A stretch of 64,000 nt of DNA from a virus, in IMG/VR virus record IMGVR_UViG_3300013306_000001, positions 1-64,000 of that record; one strand, 5' to 3'. Shown piece by piece: positions 24,581 through 33,346 of the stretch. A model generated the notes under the pieces. The model worked only from the letters and a program-made list of their open reading frames with translations. It made no database searches and had not been told where the DNA came from. The stretch's first letter is position 1. Each line of letters starts with the position of its first letter. A program made the translations under genes and the position numbers.

Positions 24581-25939
24581 TTGATCTATGAATTAAGTCA
24601 TATGACAGAATATGATGTATATGCAGTTAACCTACAGTGTGTTAGAAGCTATATCTATTACCATGAATCTAAATACTATAAGAAGATAGTAGACGATATC
24701 ATGGAACATACTAGGTACAAGTGGGAAGATGCAGTTAGGTGGTGGGTTTCTAACTCCGCTCGTGCAATCAAGAAGAAAGCTAATGGATTTGTCTTTAGCT
24801 TGGATAGGAATGCATACAGTAAGACAAAGCAACGTATTAATTATAGAAAGGTTAAATCTCTTGTTGATTTTCTGGAACAAAAAGGTTATATTGACATTTA
24901 TAAAGGCTATGTTAAGTCTTGGAAGATGGAGAAAGGAAAGCTCATTCCGGATGAAGCTATTGCTTCTTGCATGATCTTCAGAAAGCGTACAAAAGAGATG
25001 TGGGAGAATGTAAATACCTCATACAATCTGTGGAAAGAATTGGAAGAGAATGATCTGGCGATCATTCGTGATCGGGAGACTAAAGAACAAATGCCTACTC
25101 GTGGACACAAAGGTTTTAAAGAAATTAAAAATGAGGTAAGAGATATGAACGATACACTGCAAGGCAGCTCAATTACATTTGATGGTGTTCCTATTGCTGA
25201 CGTATCTTATCGCCGCATCTTCAGTGGAGATATGGATAGCGGAGGTCGTCTGTATACTCTCGGTGGAGGTGTTCAGTTATTACCTCAACATGTGCGGGCA
25301 TCATCCTTAATGATTGATGGTGAATCATCTGTGGAGCTGGATTACTCCGCAATTCATCCCTCAATCTGTTATCAATTGATGTACAAAACAAATGGGTTTA
25401 ACATTTATGATGTAATGGGTAAGGACTTTTCACCATATGATGCAGATCTATCATTCCTTAAGGTTGATGGCAGGTTGAAAGAAGAATGGGAGAAGAAAAC
25501 AGGCAAGAAACACAACCCTATTCGTCAATTAGCCAAGTTAGCTATCTTGATTGGCATGAACTCCAATGATAAGAATAGCGCAGCTTGGACACTCGGAAAT
25601 AAAGTCAAACAAGACCGAGCGAAGGCAATTAAAGATCAAGACTTCTATGCCCTGATAGGAGAAACAGACTATTGCGCTGTCCTTGAGGCTGTTCAAAGCC
25701 ACAACGATTTCATTAAGGATCATTTCTTTTCTGATTCAGGCATTGTTCTTCAAAACATAGACAGTAAGATCATGATGCGTATTGTTGGTGCAATGGGGAC
25801 AAAGGGTCATACAGTGCTGGCTTATCATGACAGTTGTTTGGTAAAAGCTTCTGCTGAAGATGACTTGCGTGAAGCTATGTATTCGGCATGGGAGACAGTA
25901 TTGGGAGACACAACATTTTGTAAGGTAGACAAGAAATGA
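24581..25939 (+). CDS. family-A/T7-RNAP-related polymerase-like protein (TV-Pol-like)
   Basis: GGRLY, motif A-like VELDYSAIHP, motif B-like R..AK, LQNIDS and motif C LAYHDS; AGGAGG RBS with TTG start. Confidence 0.65.
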   Translation: MIYELSHMTEYDVYAVNLQCVRSYIYYHESKYYKKIVDDIMEHTRYKWEDAVRWWVSNSARAIKKKANGFVFSLDRNAYSKTKQRINYRKVKSLVDFLEQKGYIDIYKGYVKSWKMEKGKLIPDEAIASCMIFRKRTKEMWENVNTSYNLWKELEENDLAIIRDRETKEQMPTRGHKGFKEIKNEVRDMNDTLQGSSITFDGVPIADVSYRRIFSGDMDSGGRLYTLGGGVQLLPQHVRASSLMIDGESSVELDYSAIHPSICYQLMYKTNGFNIYDVMGKDFSPYDADLSFLKVDGRLKEEWEKKTGKKHNPIRQLAKLAILIGMNSNDKNSAAWTLGNKVKQDRAKAIKDQDFYALIGETDYCAVLEAVQSHNDFIKDHFFSDSGIVLQNIDSKIMMRIVGAMGTKGHTVLAYHDSCLVKASAEDDLREAMYSAWETVLGDTTFCKVDKK

Positions 25940-26118
25940 AAATTGAAAAGTTTGATAAAAGTGTTTCCACAGTAAAATATAAGTTCGGCAGACTAGGATG
26001 GACGTTTCATTGGGTACATGAGCATTGCGATTCATTTACACTAATTGATTCTCATGGGATTTGGAGAGGTTTGTTCGGAAAATTAATCTGGTTAGAGAAG
26101 AAGTCTAACTATAAATAA
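25936..26118 (+). CDS. hypothetical protein
   Basis: Coupled (ATGA) 60 aa ORF. Confidence 0.55.
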   Translation: MKIEKFDKSVSTVKYKFGRLGWTFHWVHEHCDSFTLIDSHGIWRGLFGKLIWLEKKSNYK

Positions 26119-26134
26119 TTATTTTCACAAACAC

Positions 26135-26163
26135 TTGACTTTGAGAAATCTATAGAGTAGTAT
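26135..26163 (+). promoter_or_regulatory. sigma70-type promoter
   Basis: TTGACT-17-TAGTAT. Confidence 0.55.
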
Positions 26164-26205
26164 GTTTCTTATAGAACTTAAATAACTTTGTGTTGGAGGT
26201 GTAAT

Positions 26206-26397
26206 ATCAGATGCCGATGCTGTAATTTACCTCTTTCGTGGAGGAATTTTAAAATGAAACAAGACGATGGAAGTGAAGAAGACTTCTGTACAAACTGCTT
26301 AAACATTGTCTATAACATAGATCAGTACGAACCAAGACAGTATACGTTTGAGCAAGAGTGTGATCCTTTCCATATTCCAGAAACATATATAGAATAA
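26206..26397 (+). CDS. small Zn-finger protein, probable ATC start
   Basis: GGAGGTG SD 4 nt before the in-frame ATC; CRCC...CTNC motif. Confidence 0.55.
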   Translation: MRCRCCNLPLSWRNFKMKQDDGSEEDFCTNCLNIVYNIDQYEPRQYTFEQECDPFHIPETYIE

Positions 26398-26404
26398 ATA
26401 ATGC

Positions 26405-26433
26405 TTGCTATTGTCATGTAATAATGTTACAAT
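26405..26433 (+). promoter_or_regulatory. sigma70-type promoter for the RNA locus
   Basis: TTGCTA-17-TACAAT with TG. Confidence 0.6.
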
Positions 26434-26465
26434 GTTGTATGGATGATATGTTTTATCTGAAAGCA

Positions 26466-26878
26466 AGCCTTGGTGATATGGCACAACTCTAGCCATTTCC
26501 ATATGTTCGTCGGTAGGGTGAGAGTAAGGCTAAAAAGATTTATGAGAAGCCAGATAACCCTTCATTTGGTTATTGAAAGGTCAGACTACCACTGACGGCA
26601 GCTACTGGGATACTTTGATATTCTGGTCTGACGCTGACACAGCTTCTCACTTAACACATTCAATCTTGACGGAGATTGTCTAATTCCCTTTAAGGGGCTT
26701 GAAGAATTCTGACGAGAGTTTAAAGTCTTCCATTGTGTAACTGGGAGCAATGAATCAGCTGAAAGGCAAAAAGAGCATGCAGTTCAATTCTGCTCGGTAG
26801 CTGAGGGTTGGTACGCAACCGTTCGATTCGGTTCTGGTCTATCTGGTGATAGAAGCTTGACTGATGGAAAGACATCAC
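26466..26878 (+). ncRNA. large structured non-coding RNA, family unknown
   Basis: No credible ORF. Nested stems (TGAGAAGC/GCTTCTCA, TCAGACTA/TGGTCTGA, TCAGCT/AGCTGA) and two T-arm-like hairpins (GCAG-TTCAATT-CTGC, AACCG-TTCGATT-CGGTT). Confidence 0.55.
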
Positions 26879-26885
26879 AAATTTC

Positions 26886-26968
26886 GGATGAGTAGTCCCA
26901 GGATTCTTCTAAAGTCCTACGGGTAATTGGAACTGTAAATGTGGGATCGTACCCCATCTCATCCTCCA
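26886..26968 (+). tRNA. atypical tRNA-like RNA with Arg(UCU) anticodon loop
   Basis: Acceptor GGATGAG/CTCATCC-T-CCA, T arm GTGGG-ATCGTAC-CCCAT, hairpin AGGATT-CTTCTAA-AGTCCT; no D arm at the canonical position. Confidence 0.6.
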
Positions 26969-26977
26969 AAGTTTCAC

Positions 26978-27221
26978 CCACAATCACTAAGATTAAGTCT
27001 AAAAAGATTGTGGTATTCACGCTGTCATCTCCTCTCCTAAGACAGCACTTAAAGATATTTCAAGTCTCCTCTCACTCCTCATTCTTGAAATATCTTTGGC
27101 CTTGGATAGATTATAAGAGTTCTCTCCTTCTCGTATAATCTTCGCTAACAGGGCCATTTCTTAAGCGTTCTTCTTCATTATGAATACTACAGGGCATAGC
27201 CGGTAAGTTCGCTTAAGAAAT
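26978..27221 (+). ncRNA. tandem hairpin array with CUCCU (anti-SD) loops
   Basis: Five consecutive hairpins; three loops carry five copies of CTCCT in total. Confidence 0.6.
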
Positions 27222-27245
27222 CACTTATTCATAGGAATATACATT

Positions 27246-27644
27246 ATGACTACCAAGAATAAAAACCCTAGTCTGGCAACAAGATTTGACGGTCCAAAGT
27301 CAAATCGTAAAACCACTGGCGGAAATAGCAAACGAATCACTAAAAGCAAGCTTCGCATCCTAGAAGAACAGTTGCTTGAGATGAAAGATAAAGCTCTTGA
27401 GAACATCAAGAAGAGTATCAACGGCGAGCAGATTGATACTGAACAGCTTGGCTCAAGTAAGTGGTTGGTTAACAGCATCGTAACAGTCAGTAAATCGGCT
27501 AATGCTGAAGAAATCTCTTACAACAAGCTTAAGTTTGAAGTGAAGGATTCTCTGGAAGCTGGTGAACAGACTCCTTCTGAAATCAAAGCAGAATTGAAAC
27601 CTCGTTTGAGTCTAGTTTATACAGAACCTGATCAAGACGAGTAA
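27246..27644 (+). CDS. putative terminase small subunit
   Basis: Basic N-terminus with TRF, helical 132 aa protein upstream of the packaging module; positional inference. Confidence 0.4.
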   Translation: MTTKNKNPSLATRFDGPKSNRKTTGGNSKRITKSKLRILEEQLLEMKDKALENIKKSINGEQIDTEQLGSSKWLVNSIVTVSKSANAEEISYNKLKFEVKDSLEAGEQTPSEIKAELKPRLSLVYTEPDQDE

Positions 27645-27755
27645 CTAACACGGCCACGGCCTGTGTATCGGACTGCCTAGTCTAAACCCGTACTTCTGGC
27701 GAAGTACATCTGTTAGTGAAAGGGATGGCCGTCCTTGTCTTGCCACATCAAGACT
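27644..27755 (+). ncRNA. small multi-hairpin structured RNA candidate
   Basis: ACTAACA/TGTTAGT stem; hairpins GGC-CACG-GCC, GGACT-GCCT-AGTCT, GTACTTC-TGGC-GAAGTAC and GTCTTG-CCACAT-CAAGAC. Confidence 0.4.
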
Positions 27756-27789
27756 AGCTAGCACTTATTTAATCTATGTGGAGATATAT

Positions 27790-27879
27790 GGAACAGACGC
27801 CAGTATTAGTTTGCTGGCATCCACCTCATAAGTGGAAGTCTTTTGACCGTTGCGAGTGCAATTCTCGCCTGTTCCCCCA
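27790..27879 (+). tRNA. atypical tRNA, anticodon CAT (Met or Ile2)
   Basis: Acceptor GGAACAG/CTGTTCC-C-CCA; anticodon arm TCCAC-CTCATAA-GTGGA; T arm GCGAG-TGCAATT-CTCGC; 7-bp D stem; long variable arm. Confidence 0.7.
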
Positions 27880-27885
27880 AATTCT

Positions 27886-28614
27886 ATGAAATACACTAAA
27901 GAAATACTTAAACAGAAACTGCTGGATTTTGTTGAAATATATAATAGGAATCCCACTGGCAGAGACTGTAAAAAGTACCCAGAAATATTAGTCGGTAAAA
28001 ATACTTTCGTCAGATATTTTGGCTCATTTAATTCAGCCATTTTATATGCAGGACTAATTCCCTATACGAGAGATTTAAGAGACTATAAAACTATTTCTTG
28101 TGAATTCTGCAATATTGAGTTTATAGATAAAACTTGTGAAGCTAAGTTTTGTTCGAAGTCTTGTTATAATTCTTCAAGGAAAGATCAAGCTAAAAATAGC
28201 AAACCCGACATAGTTATAAAGGTTTGCTTAGAGTGTAATTGTTCATTTGAATCTGACAAAAAGAGCAGAAAGGGAAATTTCTGTAATTTTATTTGTAGGT
28301 CTACCAATCAGATGAAGAACACTTCAATTGGTGAGATGTCTAGATATACTGAACAAAATAAATACCGAGCTATTAGAGATAAAGCACATAATTTCTATAA
28401 CACTTTTGGTAAAAGTTGTTCTTGTGCAAATTGCGGTTACTCAAAGCATGTTGAGCTTTGTCATATAAAGGCAATTACTGATTTTGATAAATCAGAAAGT
28501 GTTTGGGAATGCAATAAACCCGAAAACATTATATTCTTATGTCCTAACTGTCACTGGGAGCTAGACTATGGCGACCTTTCAGTAGAAGATATAAGGGTTT
28601 GTAATTTGTCGTAA
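27886..28614 (+). CDS. HNH endonuclease with Zn-finger repeats, inserted in the tRNA locus
   Basis: N-terminal YTKE.L...YFGSFN.A repeat, CxxC/FCSKSC modules and CANCG...ELCHIK...N.IFLCPNCH HNH motif; ATG at 27886. Confidence 0.8.
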   Translation: MKYTKEILKQKLLDFVEIYNRNPTGRDCKKYPEILVGKNTFVRYFGSFNSAILYAGLIPYTRDLRDYKTISCEFCNIEFIDKTCEAKFCSKSCYNSSRKDQAKNSKPDIVIKVCLECNCSFESDKKSRKGNFCNFICRSTNQMKNTSIGEMSRYTEQNKYRAIRDKAHNFYNTFGKSCSCANCGYSKHVELCHIKAITDFDKSESVWECNKPENIIFLCPNCHWELDYGDLSVEDIRVCNLS

Positions 28615-31049: not shown

Positions 31050-31637
31050 ATGAATGAAGTATTACTTACCCACGAGTATTTAAAAGAAGCTTTAACTTAT
31101 AATCCAGAAACTGGAAAGTTTACTTGGAGGTTGGATAGACCAGATTCACACTTCAAAGATTGGAGAGGTAAGAATGGCTTCTATAGTAATATTAGTCCTT
31201 CCTTAGAGGCGGGATCAGTATCAAGAGTGACCAAGAGAAATCCTTCATCATATATTGTAATCGGCCTTTGTGGAAAGCTTTATAAAGCCCACCGCCTTGC
31301 CTGGTTTTATGTAAACGGTGAATGGCCGTCCGAAGATATTGATCATATTGATTTAAATACTCAAAATAACGCAATATCTAATTTACAACTTAGTATTGAT
31401 AAACTTAACCACAGAAACCGTTCCAAATACAGTAATAATTCTTCTGGAGTTGTTGGTGTATCTTTCCATAAAAAGACTGGTAAATGGCAAGCTGAAGGTC
31501 AAGAAATTGTTGACGGTAAGAGAGTCAGACACTATTTAGGTCTATTTAAAAATCTAGAAGATGCAGCAAATGCTCGAAGAGATTGGGAAGTCGCGTACGG
31601 ATATTCTGAAAATCATGGTAAAGAAATTTCCAGATGA
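31050..31637 (+). CDS. HNH-AP2 homing endonuclease
   Basis: L.YNPETGKFTW, YKAHRLAWFY..GEWP..IDHID...NN.ISNL and NSSGVVGVSF...KWQA...YLGLF. Confidence 0.9.
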   Translation: MNEVLLTHEYLKEALTYNPETGKFTWRLDRPDSHFKDWRGKNGFYSNISPSLEAGSVSRVTKRNPSSYIVIGLCGKLYKAHRLAWFYVNGEWPSEDIDHIDLNTQNNAISNLQLSIDKLNHRNRSKYSNNSSGVVGVSFHKKTGKWQAEGQEIVDGKRVRHYLGLFKNLEDAANARRDWEVAYGYSENHGKEISR

Positions 31638-33346
31638 CAGATATGGATTATAGTTTCCAGCCAGCTTCGCGAAAGCAAAGCTGGTTCTTGGCTAGCAATA
31701 GTAATATCATTGTATATGGTGGTGAACTTAGCGCCTCCATTTAAAACCCCTCTAATTCGGTGAAACCCAAACGTAAAGACGTGGGTAATACCGAGCGAAG
31801 ACTTATTTATAAGTAACGTGTAGAGACTAACGCTGATGAATGTAAGCGAGTAGGTTGCAAGTGCAATCGAAACGGGGGGCTACGAAAGTAGAAGATATAG
31901 TCCGATCCTTTGCGAAAGCGAAGAGAGTTTAACGAACTCTATAACTAAAAGGCTATGGGTGGTGGCAAGTCCTATTGTGGTTTGCTACGACATCTCCGCT
32001 GGGTTGACGATCCTCAGTATCGTGGATTCATTATCCGTAAAAACCAAACAACTTTGATGAAAGCTTCTGGTTTGTTTGACGAAGCTACCAGCTTATATAA
32101 AGCGTTTGATCCTAAAGTAAAAATTAACAAAAAGGCTATGACCTTTACGTTCCCAAGTGGTGCCATTATTGCCATGTCTCACTTGGAAACTGACGAAGAT
32201 GCAGAGAAATTTCGTGGCCTCCAAATTTCCGGGGCGATGATAGATGAAGCCACTCAGATAACCGAAGACCATACTCTGGTTGTATTATCTCGGCTGCGTT
32301 CTAAAGCAAAGATGGTTCCCAATCTTTTCCTGACTTGTAACCCTTCACCTGATTCTTTTTTGAGACGTTGGATTGATTGGTGGATTATTCCAAAAGGAGA
32401 AGAAAACGAAGGTCGGCCCGACCCCGAACGGGATGGTAAAGTTCGTTGGTTTATTCGAATCGCTGGTGACATGATTTGGGCAGACACAAAAGAGGAACTC
32501 CTGGAGATATACGGCAACAGAGACGGTGAAGGTAATATTTTACCGGACACAGATGAAAAACAACATTGTCGTCCACTGTCCCTACAGTTTATTTCAGCCA
32601 CAATCTACGATAATCCGCCACTTATTAAATCCAACCCCGGATATCTTGCAAACCTTCAAGGTCTCAAGCGCGTAAAAAAGGAGCGCGACCTTTACGGGAA
32701 CTGGGATATTCGTGAGGATGCCGCAGGATTTTGGAAAGCGGAGTGGCTGGGTGAGCCCGTAAATGAATATGATTTAAATATTGTTCAATATTGTCGTGCA
32801 TGGGATATTGCCGGAAGTTTACCTTGTGAAGCGTTGCCAAATCCTGATTGGACTGCTGGCGTTTTAATGGGTAAAACAAAAGAAGGTCTATATATCATTC
32901 TAGATGTTGTTCGATTTAGGGCAAGATTTGGAGAGGTGATGCAGCGCATTGTAGAGACGGGCTTAGATGACCCCGATGGTACTCAAATCATTATTCCACA
33001 AGAGCCGGGCCAGGCAGGTAAAGCTGCTGGACAAATGATGATTAAAGAACTTATTTCTGAAGGTCTTTTCGCAAGAATGCGCCCGTCTAATAAGTCTAAG
33101 GTTGTACGGTTTCAACCAGTAGTTTCGGCATCGGAAGCGGGTCTTGTTCGTTATGTTCGCGGTGCATGGAATGATGCTTATTTCTCAGAGATGGAAGGCT
33201 TCGATGGAACCCGCGCTGTGAAGGATGACCAAGTTGATGCAACTAGTGACTCATTCATTACATTAGCACAGAAAATCCATATTGGTAATTTTCTTGGTGG
33301 TTTAGTAACTGCTGACCTCTCAACTAAAAATCCATTTAATCGCTAA
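31634..33346 (+). CDS. terL: terminase large subunit, two exons (31634-31723 and 31952-33346), 494 aa after splicing
   Basis: Splicing restores Walker A IIVYGG|AMGGGKS; Walker B MIDEA, LTCNP, RAWD and DDQVDA nuclease motifs. Confidence 0.9.
31724..31951 (+). mobile_element. group I intron without internal ORF (228 nt)
   Basis: P AATTCGGTGAAA, Q AATACCGAGC, R GTAGAGACTA, S AAGATATAGTCC. P1 with U.G splice pair, P10 TAGC/GCTA and terminal G at 31951. Confidence 0.9.

Follow-up and report, generated by a model that had tools for sequence, protein, structure and literature searches.

Positions 26970–27225 of the + strand specify a non-coding RNA of approximately 255 nt, which is organized in five helices and belongs to a conserved, uncatalogued family that occurs once per genome in an uncultured clade of myoviruses of ~78–93 kb. 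The virus record is 90,095 bp long and has terminal repeats; its first 64 kb make up the window, i.e. the whole stretch of 64,000 nucleotides that was analysed, in which the GC content is ~39%. The RNA-encoding array occupies an ORF-poor gap (26118–27246) flanked by a 452-aa gene and a 132-aa gene, both on the + strand, about 4 kb upstream of the terminase. The packaging and structural genes form an arm whose head is a tRNA region on the + strand, and the array is part of this region, as shown by the presence of tRNA-Met(CAT) on the same strand nearby. The elements of the locus are as follows.

26886–26968, + strand: tRNA-Arg(UCU)-like element, directly upstream of the array, read from the sequence
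26971–26978, + strand: conserved single-stranded 5′ leader GUUUCACC
26978–27013, + strand: helix 1, CCCACAATC/GATTGTGG, enclosing a small hairpin at 26990–27000, without pyrimidine motif
27021–27046, + strand: helix 2, 6 bp, with loop ATCTCCTCTCCTAA / AUCUCCUCUCCUAA at 27027–27040
27051–27097, + strand: helix 3, 14 perfect pairs, with loop TCTCCTCTCACTCCTCATT / UCUCCUCUCACUCCUCAUU at 27065–27083
27098–27155, + strand: helix 4, outer stem GGCCUUG/CAGGGCC, inner stem 27108–27141
27156–27221, + strand: helix 5, AUUUCUUAAG.../...CUUAAGAAAU, long closing stem with a small inner hairpin (inverted repeat I1)
27246–27644, + strand: gene for a 132-aa basic protein, directly downstream of the array, used as the handle for finding relatives
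27790–27879, + strand: tRNA-Met(CAT), 90 nt, called by ARAGORN, ~150 nt beyond the 132-aa gene

The portal and terminase proteins are distant kin of those of Pseudomonas myoviruses, with vB_PsaM_M1 as the best match (52.8% amino-acid identity); no close cultured relative of the 90,095-bp record was found. The nearest cultured relatives are myoviruses of the virulent type, and the record contains no Phage_integrase match. Both observations are compatible with the designation as a lytic phage in the initial annotation, although they fall short of proof. The closest cultured relative infects Pseudomonas and has a GC content of 41.9%, and a Pseudomonas-like host is plausible. One array-bearing contig of 3.5 kb has been binned in a 'Pedobacter sp.' metagenome-assembled genome, but this host label is doubtful because the phage genes use strong Shine-Dalgarno (SD) sequences, which Bacteroidetes ribosomes are reported not to do (PMC7797042).

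The tRNA-Arg(UCU)-like element displays an acceptor stem GGATGAG/CTCATCC, a discriminator T and an encoded CCA (26966–26968). Its anticodon-like loop reads CTTCTAA and the loop of its T arm ATCGTAC, and the element is called by neither ARAGORN nor Rfam (E≤10). At the equivalent position the related locus L003 carries a canonical tRNA-Arg(TCT). Six Pseudomonas phage records contain, next to HNH genes, a sequence with 77–78% identity to approximately 80 nt of the element, and these 80 nt are the only part of 26100–27300 that is matched by blastn in 50,697 phage records. For the 132-aa protein 148 homologues are present in a large protein collection; it has no Pfam or PHROG family, and a weak Atlas lead points to DUF5681, with a negative hhalign comparison to the DUF5681 protein of PAK_P3. 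Its gene is preceded by a weak SD sequence, AGGAA. Within 25800–27900 seven promoter-like sites are observed versus 5.6 expected, and the sole terminator-like site (a GC-rich hairpin followed by a U run) lies at 27820–27836; none is present in 26900–27300, by which an array of intrinsic terminators is rejected. A proposed repeated promoter motif, AAGTTTCACC, was likewise discarded, with 77 matches at ≤2 mismatches in the window versus 76.4 expected.

Folding of the + strand of 26960–27245 with RNAfold yields five helices with a minimum free energy (MFE) of −77.3 kcal/mol, and reproduces the five back-to-back hairpins that had been proposed in the initial annotation, at the same positions. For 200 dinucleotide shuffles the MFE is −46.5 ± 3.8 (z −8.17), with none of the 200 as good. 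Helix 3, which coincides with inverted repeat I2 and is 100% complementary, has a conserved base AAAGA...UCUUU, and the loop of helix 4 (TTCTCTCCTT / UUCUCUCCUU at 27120–27129) reads exactly CCUCUCCU in 10 of 19 arrays. The stems of helix 1 vary in sequence among the relatives with their complementarity kept, as in GATAAGAC/GTCTTATC, CGTAGTC/GACTACG and ACATAAAC/GTTTATGT. The leader, which takes the form GTTTCACC in 14 of 19 loci, is probably the processed 5′ end of the array RNA. Helix 5, like helix 1 devoid of the pyrimidine motif, may be a processing site.

The sequence CTCCT occurs 73 times in the 64-kb window, and five of these copies fall within the 244 nt of the five hairpins, versus a Poisson expectation of 0.26 (P(≥5) ~8e-6). 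All five, at 27029, 27034, 27066, 27075 and 27124, are located in the loops of helices 2–4, as had been claimed. The notion of an array of anti-SD loops holds for helices 2, 3 and 4, but not for the array as a whole, as only three of its five helices carry the motif.

To retrieve relatives, the 132-aa protein was used to fetch related contigs from IMG/VR, JGI metagenomes and GTDB, and the DNA upstream of its homologues refolds to the same architecture, with differing stems and constant loops. A covariance model of helices 2–4, denoted R1 (130 positions, 37 pairs), matches 19 of 27 related sources, every match being co-oriented with the neighbouring gene, as well as four of five whole records. 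R1 finds one copy in its own 90-kb genome, and so does a simple hairpin scan. The eight R1-negative sources include two in which the array lies ~3 kb further upstream in the full record, two that have no upstream DNA (L010 and L018) and three that are fragments or have limited flank (L006, L016 and L020). The array is absent from the complete and most divergent genome, G003. A scan of viral contigs for three spaced pyrimidine motifs, which is independent of the protein, gave at least 119 stretches; among 80 such pattern loci five were assigned to the R1 family, comprising three new ones on contigs of 37–91 kb, one on the L009 record and one with a weak match elsewhere in its locus. By R1 the other 75 are unrelated CT-rich DNA.

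In the R1-fitted alignment, which leans towards R1's own structure, 88.1% of 611 pair cells are paired, versus 60.0 ± 1.4 in 500 shuffles (none as high) and 37–43% when the partner is slid. Double-sided, compensatory changes are observed in 34 of the 37 pairs: at 5 of 6 pairs in helix 2 (R1 helix 1; 86.8% of cells paired), at 10 of 12 in helix 3 (R1 helix 2), and at 7 of 7 and 12 of 12 in helix 4 (R1 helices 3 and 4). For helix 5, 17 pairs are predicted independently by RNAalifold from a plain MAFFT alignment of 14 sequences; compensatory changes occur in 11, and one pair is U.G in eight sequences. Conservation of the loops together with covariation of the stems had been suggested as a check on the initial annotation, and the outcome is strongly positive (CUCC in 57 of 57 loops; 34 of 37 pairs). 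The folding z-score of −8.17, the covariation and the occurrence in 19 of 27 sources establish that the array is a structured RNA element and not a product of chance. A protein-coding gene is rejected because in 13 of 13 arrays none of the six frames has fewer than two stops.

The family appears to be new to the catalogues searched. Rfam 15 gives no family at gathering score over the array in the window and 20 related loci, nor a hammerhead at gathering score in 20 loci, and R1 finds no match in the 41-kb syntenic regions of vB_PsaM_M1, Boevelstad, vB_PseuGesM_254 and phiK7A1 (0/4). The literature searched, including passages of the phage-sRNA review PMC12197685, holds no description of the RNA family.

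The + strand is the RNA. Of the four lines of evidence that agree on this strand, the first is the excess of wobble pairs: the 611 pair cells contain 56 G.U versus 12 A.C, so that 88.1% of cells are paired on the + strand and 80.9% on the − strand. In helices otherwise consisting of Watson–Crick pairs the single mismatches comprise 14 G.T, one A.C and nine others, some of these events being common to close relatives and hence not all independent. Folding is also stronger on this strand, as the − strand has an MFE of −73.2 with a z of only −2.77, and in 11 of 14 arrays the + strand has the lower MFE. Furthermore, all 12 tRNAs called by ARAGORN in 18 loci lie on the + strand. Finally, GUUUCACC is joined without a spacer to the CCA of a canonical tRNA in L003, L021, L023 and L028; in the window the tRNA-like CCA lies 2 nt upstream of it. 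The strand that had been taken for folding is thereby borne out.

Sequence related to the array occurs in two metatranscriptome libraries, as judged from assembled contigs without strand of four RNA-labelled sequencing runs; runs with a small share were left out of habitat claims. A 273-nt contig from a rhizosphere metatranscriptome corresponds exactly to 26970–27248 in a relative, with 34 other letters and 16 gaps, and a 225-nt contig from a marine metatranscriptome spans 27036–27252. The array is covered at a contig depth of 17.1, which does not exceed that of neighbouring genes (10.8–44.9). At the 3′ end there is a 30-nt overlap with two variant contigs, so that contig ends may reflect breaks in the assembly; the start of the rhizosphere contig at 26970 is a weak hint of the RNA 5′ end. 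Since the neighbours are covered as well, the depth over the array is not raised, the contigs are strandless and their ends are perhaps breaks, these contigs indicate the presence of the array in RNA libraries only.

The 57 loops of the 19 arrays consist for 89% of pyrimidines and contain CUCC in 57, CUCCU in 53, CUCUCC in 41 and CCUCUCCU in 22 cases. The conserved motif is CUCUCCU, unlike the ribosomal core CCUCC, which is present in only 12 of 57 loops. In this phage AGGAG is 24-fold enriched upstream of starts and occurs at 24 of 98 long ORFs, and all six AGGAGAGG sites outside the array are located 3–4 nt before a start codon. As the phage genes thus use SD sequences of the types AGGAG and AGGAGAGG, pairing of the loops is feasible with ribosome-binding sites in this phage, and presumably also with those of an SD-using host. 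The late genes of the phage carry the GGAG-type sequence TAAGGAG.

Sites of the GGAGAG type, which would allow extended pairing, are mostly found in the non-structural arms. In four genomes with the array they account for 16, 16, 10 and 8% of the GGAG in SD context, as against 8% in G003, which lacks it. In families with members in at least three genomes, no conservation of GGAGAG or AGGAGAG on orthologous genes is observed, such sites being sporadic and limited to one or two members, and comparison of the phage genomes revealed no phage target at which extended pairing is conserved. Because the GGAGAG share is no higher than in G003 and the sites are not conserved, specific phage targets are unsupported.

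Stable RNAs are known from the tRNA regions of other phages. In PAK_P3, the terminase is closely preceded by sRNA1 and sRNA2, which are flanked by tRNAs and small genes; they are late, abundant, without a start site of their own and made by processing (PMC4933390; bioRxiv 10.1101/2023.10.13.562163). The band C/D RNAs of T4 are further processed stable RNAs of phage tRNA regions mentioned in the former source (PMC4933390). Such regions therefore do yield stable processed RNAs. The array shares its strand with the tRNAs and in four loci adjoins a tRNA without a spacer, and in its position it fits the kind of RNA that is co-transcribed with a tRNA cluster. With PAK_P3 sRNA1 and sRNA2, as described there, it shares the status of a small RNA in a tRNA region near the terminase. 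Homology is rejected, as the best E reached by R1 in the PAK_P3 locus (L057) is 1.1 even without filters, and unlike the array the two PAK_P3 RNAs have no pyrimidine loops and fold weakly (z −1.59 and −0.79). A separate observation is that in three of five loci examined, those of PAK_P3, Boevelstad and vB_PseuGesM_254, a single stable hairpin with the loop UUCCUCCU(CCU)UC is present. This one-hairpin leader is placed between a sigma70-like promoter and the SD sequence of a DUF5681 gene, at the head of the same arm.

For the function of the RNA we tentatively prefer, with somewhat less than even confidence, a proposed mechanism in which the array RNA, co-transcribed with tRNAs and processed, hides GGAG-type ribosome-binding sites by pairing of its loops with SD sequences. 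The array would be transcribed together with the tRNAs, its 5′ end would be freed by 3′ processing of the abutting tRNA or tRNA-like element, and on its 3′ side the long helix 5 would form the boundary. Open loops at the central three hairpins would expose CUCC, usually as C-CUCUCCU, and would base-pair with GGAG-type SD sequences of the phage and presumably also of the host. In this way ribosome-binding sites would be hidden from 30S subunits, with three sites per RNA molecule, and the RNA would by analogy be a counterpart to the action ascribed to the cuckoo/CcsR RNAs and RNAIII. Several observations weigh against masking. The motif is CUCUCCU, but there is no matching excess or conservation of GGAGAG; G003 manages without the array RNA; and the specificity of an SD mask is unexplained because the phage's own late genes, with TAAGGAG, would be struck too. 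A bolder and distinctly unlikely version is that the array RNA, made in bulk from the tRNA operon, mimics the mRNA-docking tail of the ribosome and globally reprograms translation. It might do so either by soaking up GGAG-type ribosome-binding sites such that only favoured messages are read, or by diverting, as a decoy, a defence nuclease or host factor that targets the 16S 3′ end. If true, this would be the first case of a virulent phage taking over translation initiation by RNA alone, with simpler counterparts of one hairpin ahead of the late operon in cultured Pseudomonas phages such as PAK_P3.

The same loops could address a protein and not mRNA, the constant pyrimidine sequences acting as a decoy or sponge for a host factor that binds pyrimidine-rich RNA or the 16S 3′ tail, for an anti-SD nuclease or for a phage protein. 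Candidate host factors are ribosomal protein S1, Hfq and KH-domain proteins, e.g. Era. Sponges such as RsmY/Z typically have several loops, the conservation of the motif (CUCUCC in 41 and CCUCUCCU in 22 of 57 loops) is stricter than 4-nt GGAG pairing would require, and the phage genomes yielded no conserved extended RNA target. Cutters that act adjacent to the anti-SD do exist, e.g. MazF-mt11 (PMC12274833), but this enzyme recognises CACCU and not the loop motif. As the loops are also perfectly complementary to the SD type of the phage's own genes and the partner protein is purely hypothetical, a protein decoy is considered improbable, though of some weight. A cis-acting leader of the late/packaging operon, which would affect only its own transcript through a loop–SD pseudoknot or as a processing or stability module, for example as RNase E/III punctuation that separates the tRNAs from the first protein gene, is also unlikely. 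In its favour, what comes after the array is in every case a gene on the + strand or a tRNA-like element, with no terminator-like site before 27246, and the cis reading gains because the cultured distant relatives PAK_P3, Boevelstad and vB_PseuGesM_254 carry a one-hairpin, pyrimidine-loop DUF5681 leader at the syntenic place; cuckoo RNAs, too, are UTR-derived (PMC8034643, in part). However, the downstream gene varies, being mostly the 132-aa gene, but an 898-aa ORF in L029 and a 109-aa ORF in L007, and T-arm-like hairpins lie downstream in L021 and L026. In addition, the SD sequence of the 132-aa gene is weak (AGGAA), and three loops with two extra conserved helices are more than one pseudoknot needs.

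A sponge for CsrA/RsmA made from the − strand is very improbable. On that strand every loop reads A(N)GGA (AGGAGAGGAGA, GAGGAGUGAGAGGAGA, AAGGAGAGAA), as in the loops known from the RsmY/RsmZ/CsrB sponges, and a Pseudomonas-like host is plausible. The four concordant lines of evidence for the + strand argue against it, including the counts of 56 G.U versus 12 A.C and 14 G.T versus one A.C, as do the z-scores of −2.77 (−) versus −8.17 (+). The flanking genes and 12 of 12 tRNAs are likewise on the + strand, with tRNA 3′ ends abutting the + strand start, and no − strand promoter-like site is present in 26900–27300. A sponge of the CsrB/RsmY/RsmZ type was hence rejected, as GGA is found in the loops only on the − strand and the wobble counts and tRNA orientation point to the + strand. 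We regard as similarly remote an element acting as DNA, in which the hairpins would form in single-stranded DNA as a replication origin, priming signal or packaging site. The location ~4 kb upstream of the terminase, beside a gene for a small basic protein, would suit such a role, and DNA hairpins formed by inverted repeats with constant loops could bind a protein. The array, however, directly follows a tRNA in transcribed orientation and shows neither an iteron-like direct repeat nor a GC-skew switch; moreover, the strand asymmetry of the G.T wobble excess fits an RNA rather than a DNA element.

The initial annotation had likened the array to the cuckoo RNAs and to RNAIII. The likeness holds at the level of design, i.e. 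several hairpins with variable stems and a constant C/U-rich loop, and does not extend to cuckoo membership. The cuckoo/CcsR RNAs of Alphaproteobacteria comprise 2–4 adjacent hairpins with variable stems and a constant anti-SD-like loop (PMC4615179 and PMC8034643, in the sections on their structure), which in cuckoo/alpha-r14 carries CCUCCUCCC (PMC4615179, same section). The phage RNA is similar in having three motif-bearing hairpins in 19 of 19 arrays and covariation in 34 of 37 pairs. It does not score as a family member: cuckoo ar14 (RF02344) gives 17.8 bits (E 1.7) versus a gathering score of 58.8, and CCUCCUCCC is found in 0 of 57 phage loops. Cuckoo RNAs are derived from UTRs by processing, RNase E cutting CcsR1 at GUUUCC (PMC4615179 and PMC8034643, in part); the phage RNA begins with GUUUCACC. 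They are co-transcribed with a gene for a small basic protein, and the phage array adjoins such a gene too. Unlike them, the phage RNA has two extra, motif-free helices and is set in a phage tRNA cluster; the array resides in a 90-kb virus beside a gene without Pfam family, whereas cuckoo RNAs are found on alphaproteobacterial chromosomes or plasmids with a DUF1127 gene. The phage RNA thus shares with the cuckoo RNAs the general hairpin plan and no other feature of membership. The likeness is convergent, and homology is not implied.

In S. aureus, RNAIII and the Rsa RNAs use UCCC loops to start pairing with the ribosome-binding sites of their targets (PMC4615179, in its comparison with cuckoo RNAs), and like these the phage RNA exposes C-rich motifs in several hairpin loops. 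RNAIII is, in contrast, a Gram-positive chromosomal regulator with another motif and its own promoter and terminator, and Rfam gives no RNAIII sequence or structure match to the array. The c4 antisense RNA of phages P1 and P7 blocks translation by pairing of its loops around the ribosome-binding site of its target (PMC12197685, in the part on c4). As described there, it differs from the array in having a single target (ant), in belonging to temperate phages and in being a catalogued family; no Rfam C4 match is present in the array. Virulent phages are also known to silence messages via GGAG ribosome-binding sites, as T4 does with the RegB endoribonuclease and the RegA repressor. These T4 agents are proteins, whereas the agent proposed here is an RNA, without demonstrable specificity for early genes.

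A function has been assigned to very few of the regulatory RNAs found in virulent phages. Those treated in the phage-sRNA review are mostly prophage RNAs (PMC12197685), and the PAK_P3 papers describe the phage tRNA-region RNAs as abundant yet unexplained (PMC4933390; bioRxiv 10.1101/2023.10.13.562163). The RNA family described here is new in being a phage-borne, tRNA-operon-embedded, five-helix design akin to the plan of cuckoo/CcsR and RNAIII. The one-hairpin leaders of cultured Pseudomonas phages, including PAK_P3, are a possible laboratory system. Together, the three SD-complementary loops and the very strong covariation lead to a testable hypothesis, namely that translation initiation in lytic infection may be under the control of an RNA.

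The 132-aa gene, which encodes a basic protein directly downstream of the array, and the five-helix array itself lie in a region of the window that carries tRNA-related sequence on both sides. The features discussed here are the following:

24581–25939, plus strand: 452-aa gene, the first past the strand switch (phrog_4756, function unassigned)
26775–26845, plus strand: tRNA debris with a canonical-looking T arm and the D-arm-like GCTCGGTAGCTGAG
26886–26968, plus strand: tRNA-Arg(UCU)-like element whose 7-bp acceptor stem pairs perfectly and which has an encoded CCA and a T arm
27790–27879, plus strand: tRNA-Met(CAT) called by ARAGORN, unusually long at 90 nt, anticodon at position 38
31050–31637: HNH gene, directly upstream of the group I intron
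31698–31924, plus strand: group I intron (Rfam, 71.5 bits) within the terminase large-subunit gene

The tRNA-Arg(UCU)-like element lacks a normal D arm and is called neither by ARAGORN nor by Rfam. Approximately 80 nt of it are 77–78% identical to DNA in six Pseudomonas phage records, including PA11 and TC6, where the counterparts are located at the 3′ end of an HNH endonuclease gene or just beyond it. The debris further upstream, with its T arm AACCG-TTCGATT-CGGTT, contains no complete tRNA as read from the sequence; in the related locus L027 the same block is placed after a real tRNA-Asn. The tRNA-Met(CAT) is the sole tRNA that ARAGORN calls in the window, and its counterparts measure 89 nt in locus L002 versus 76 nt in locus L003.

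Relatives of the 452-aa gene occur in phages of Aeromonas, Vibrio and Rheinheimera, and vB_PsaM_M1 has an equally long gene in the same place, annotated as 'DNA polymerase'. The group I intron splits the terminase gene, and group I introns are likewise present in the related loci L014 and L017.

Outside the array, all six AGGAGAGG octamers of the 90,095-bp genome that begins with the window (14480, 21713, 63463, 67535 and 72452 on the minus strand, 87479 on the plus strand) lie 3–4 nt 5′ of a start codon. The Shine-Dalgarno (SD) sequences of the structural genes are mostly TAAGGAG followed by C or T, and the non-structural arms prefer GGAGA(A/G). The phage's genes make strong use of SD sequences, which fits poorly with the 'Pedobacter sp.' MAG into which the 3.5-kb contig JAKFCP010000003.1, containing the array and the 132-aa gene, has been binned.

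Three cultured Pseudomonas phages, PAK_P3 (84651–84683; L057:352–384), Boevelstad (L059:14976–15009) and vB_PseuGesM_254 (L060:14767–14800), each have a single hairpin of 10–12 bp with the anti-SD-like loop UUCCUCCU(CCU)UC. In all three a sigma70-like promoter precedes the hairpin, and the SD that follows it belongs to the DUF5681 gene, which opens the packaging arm. These one-hairpin leaders may be a simpler functional relative of the array.
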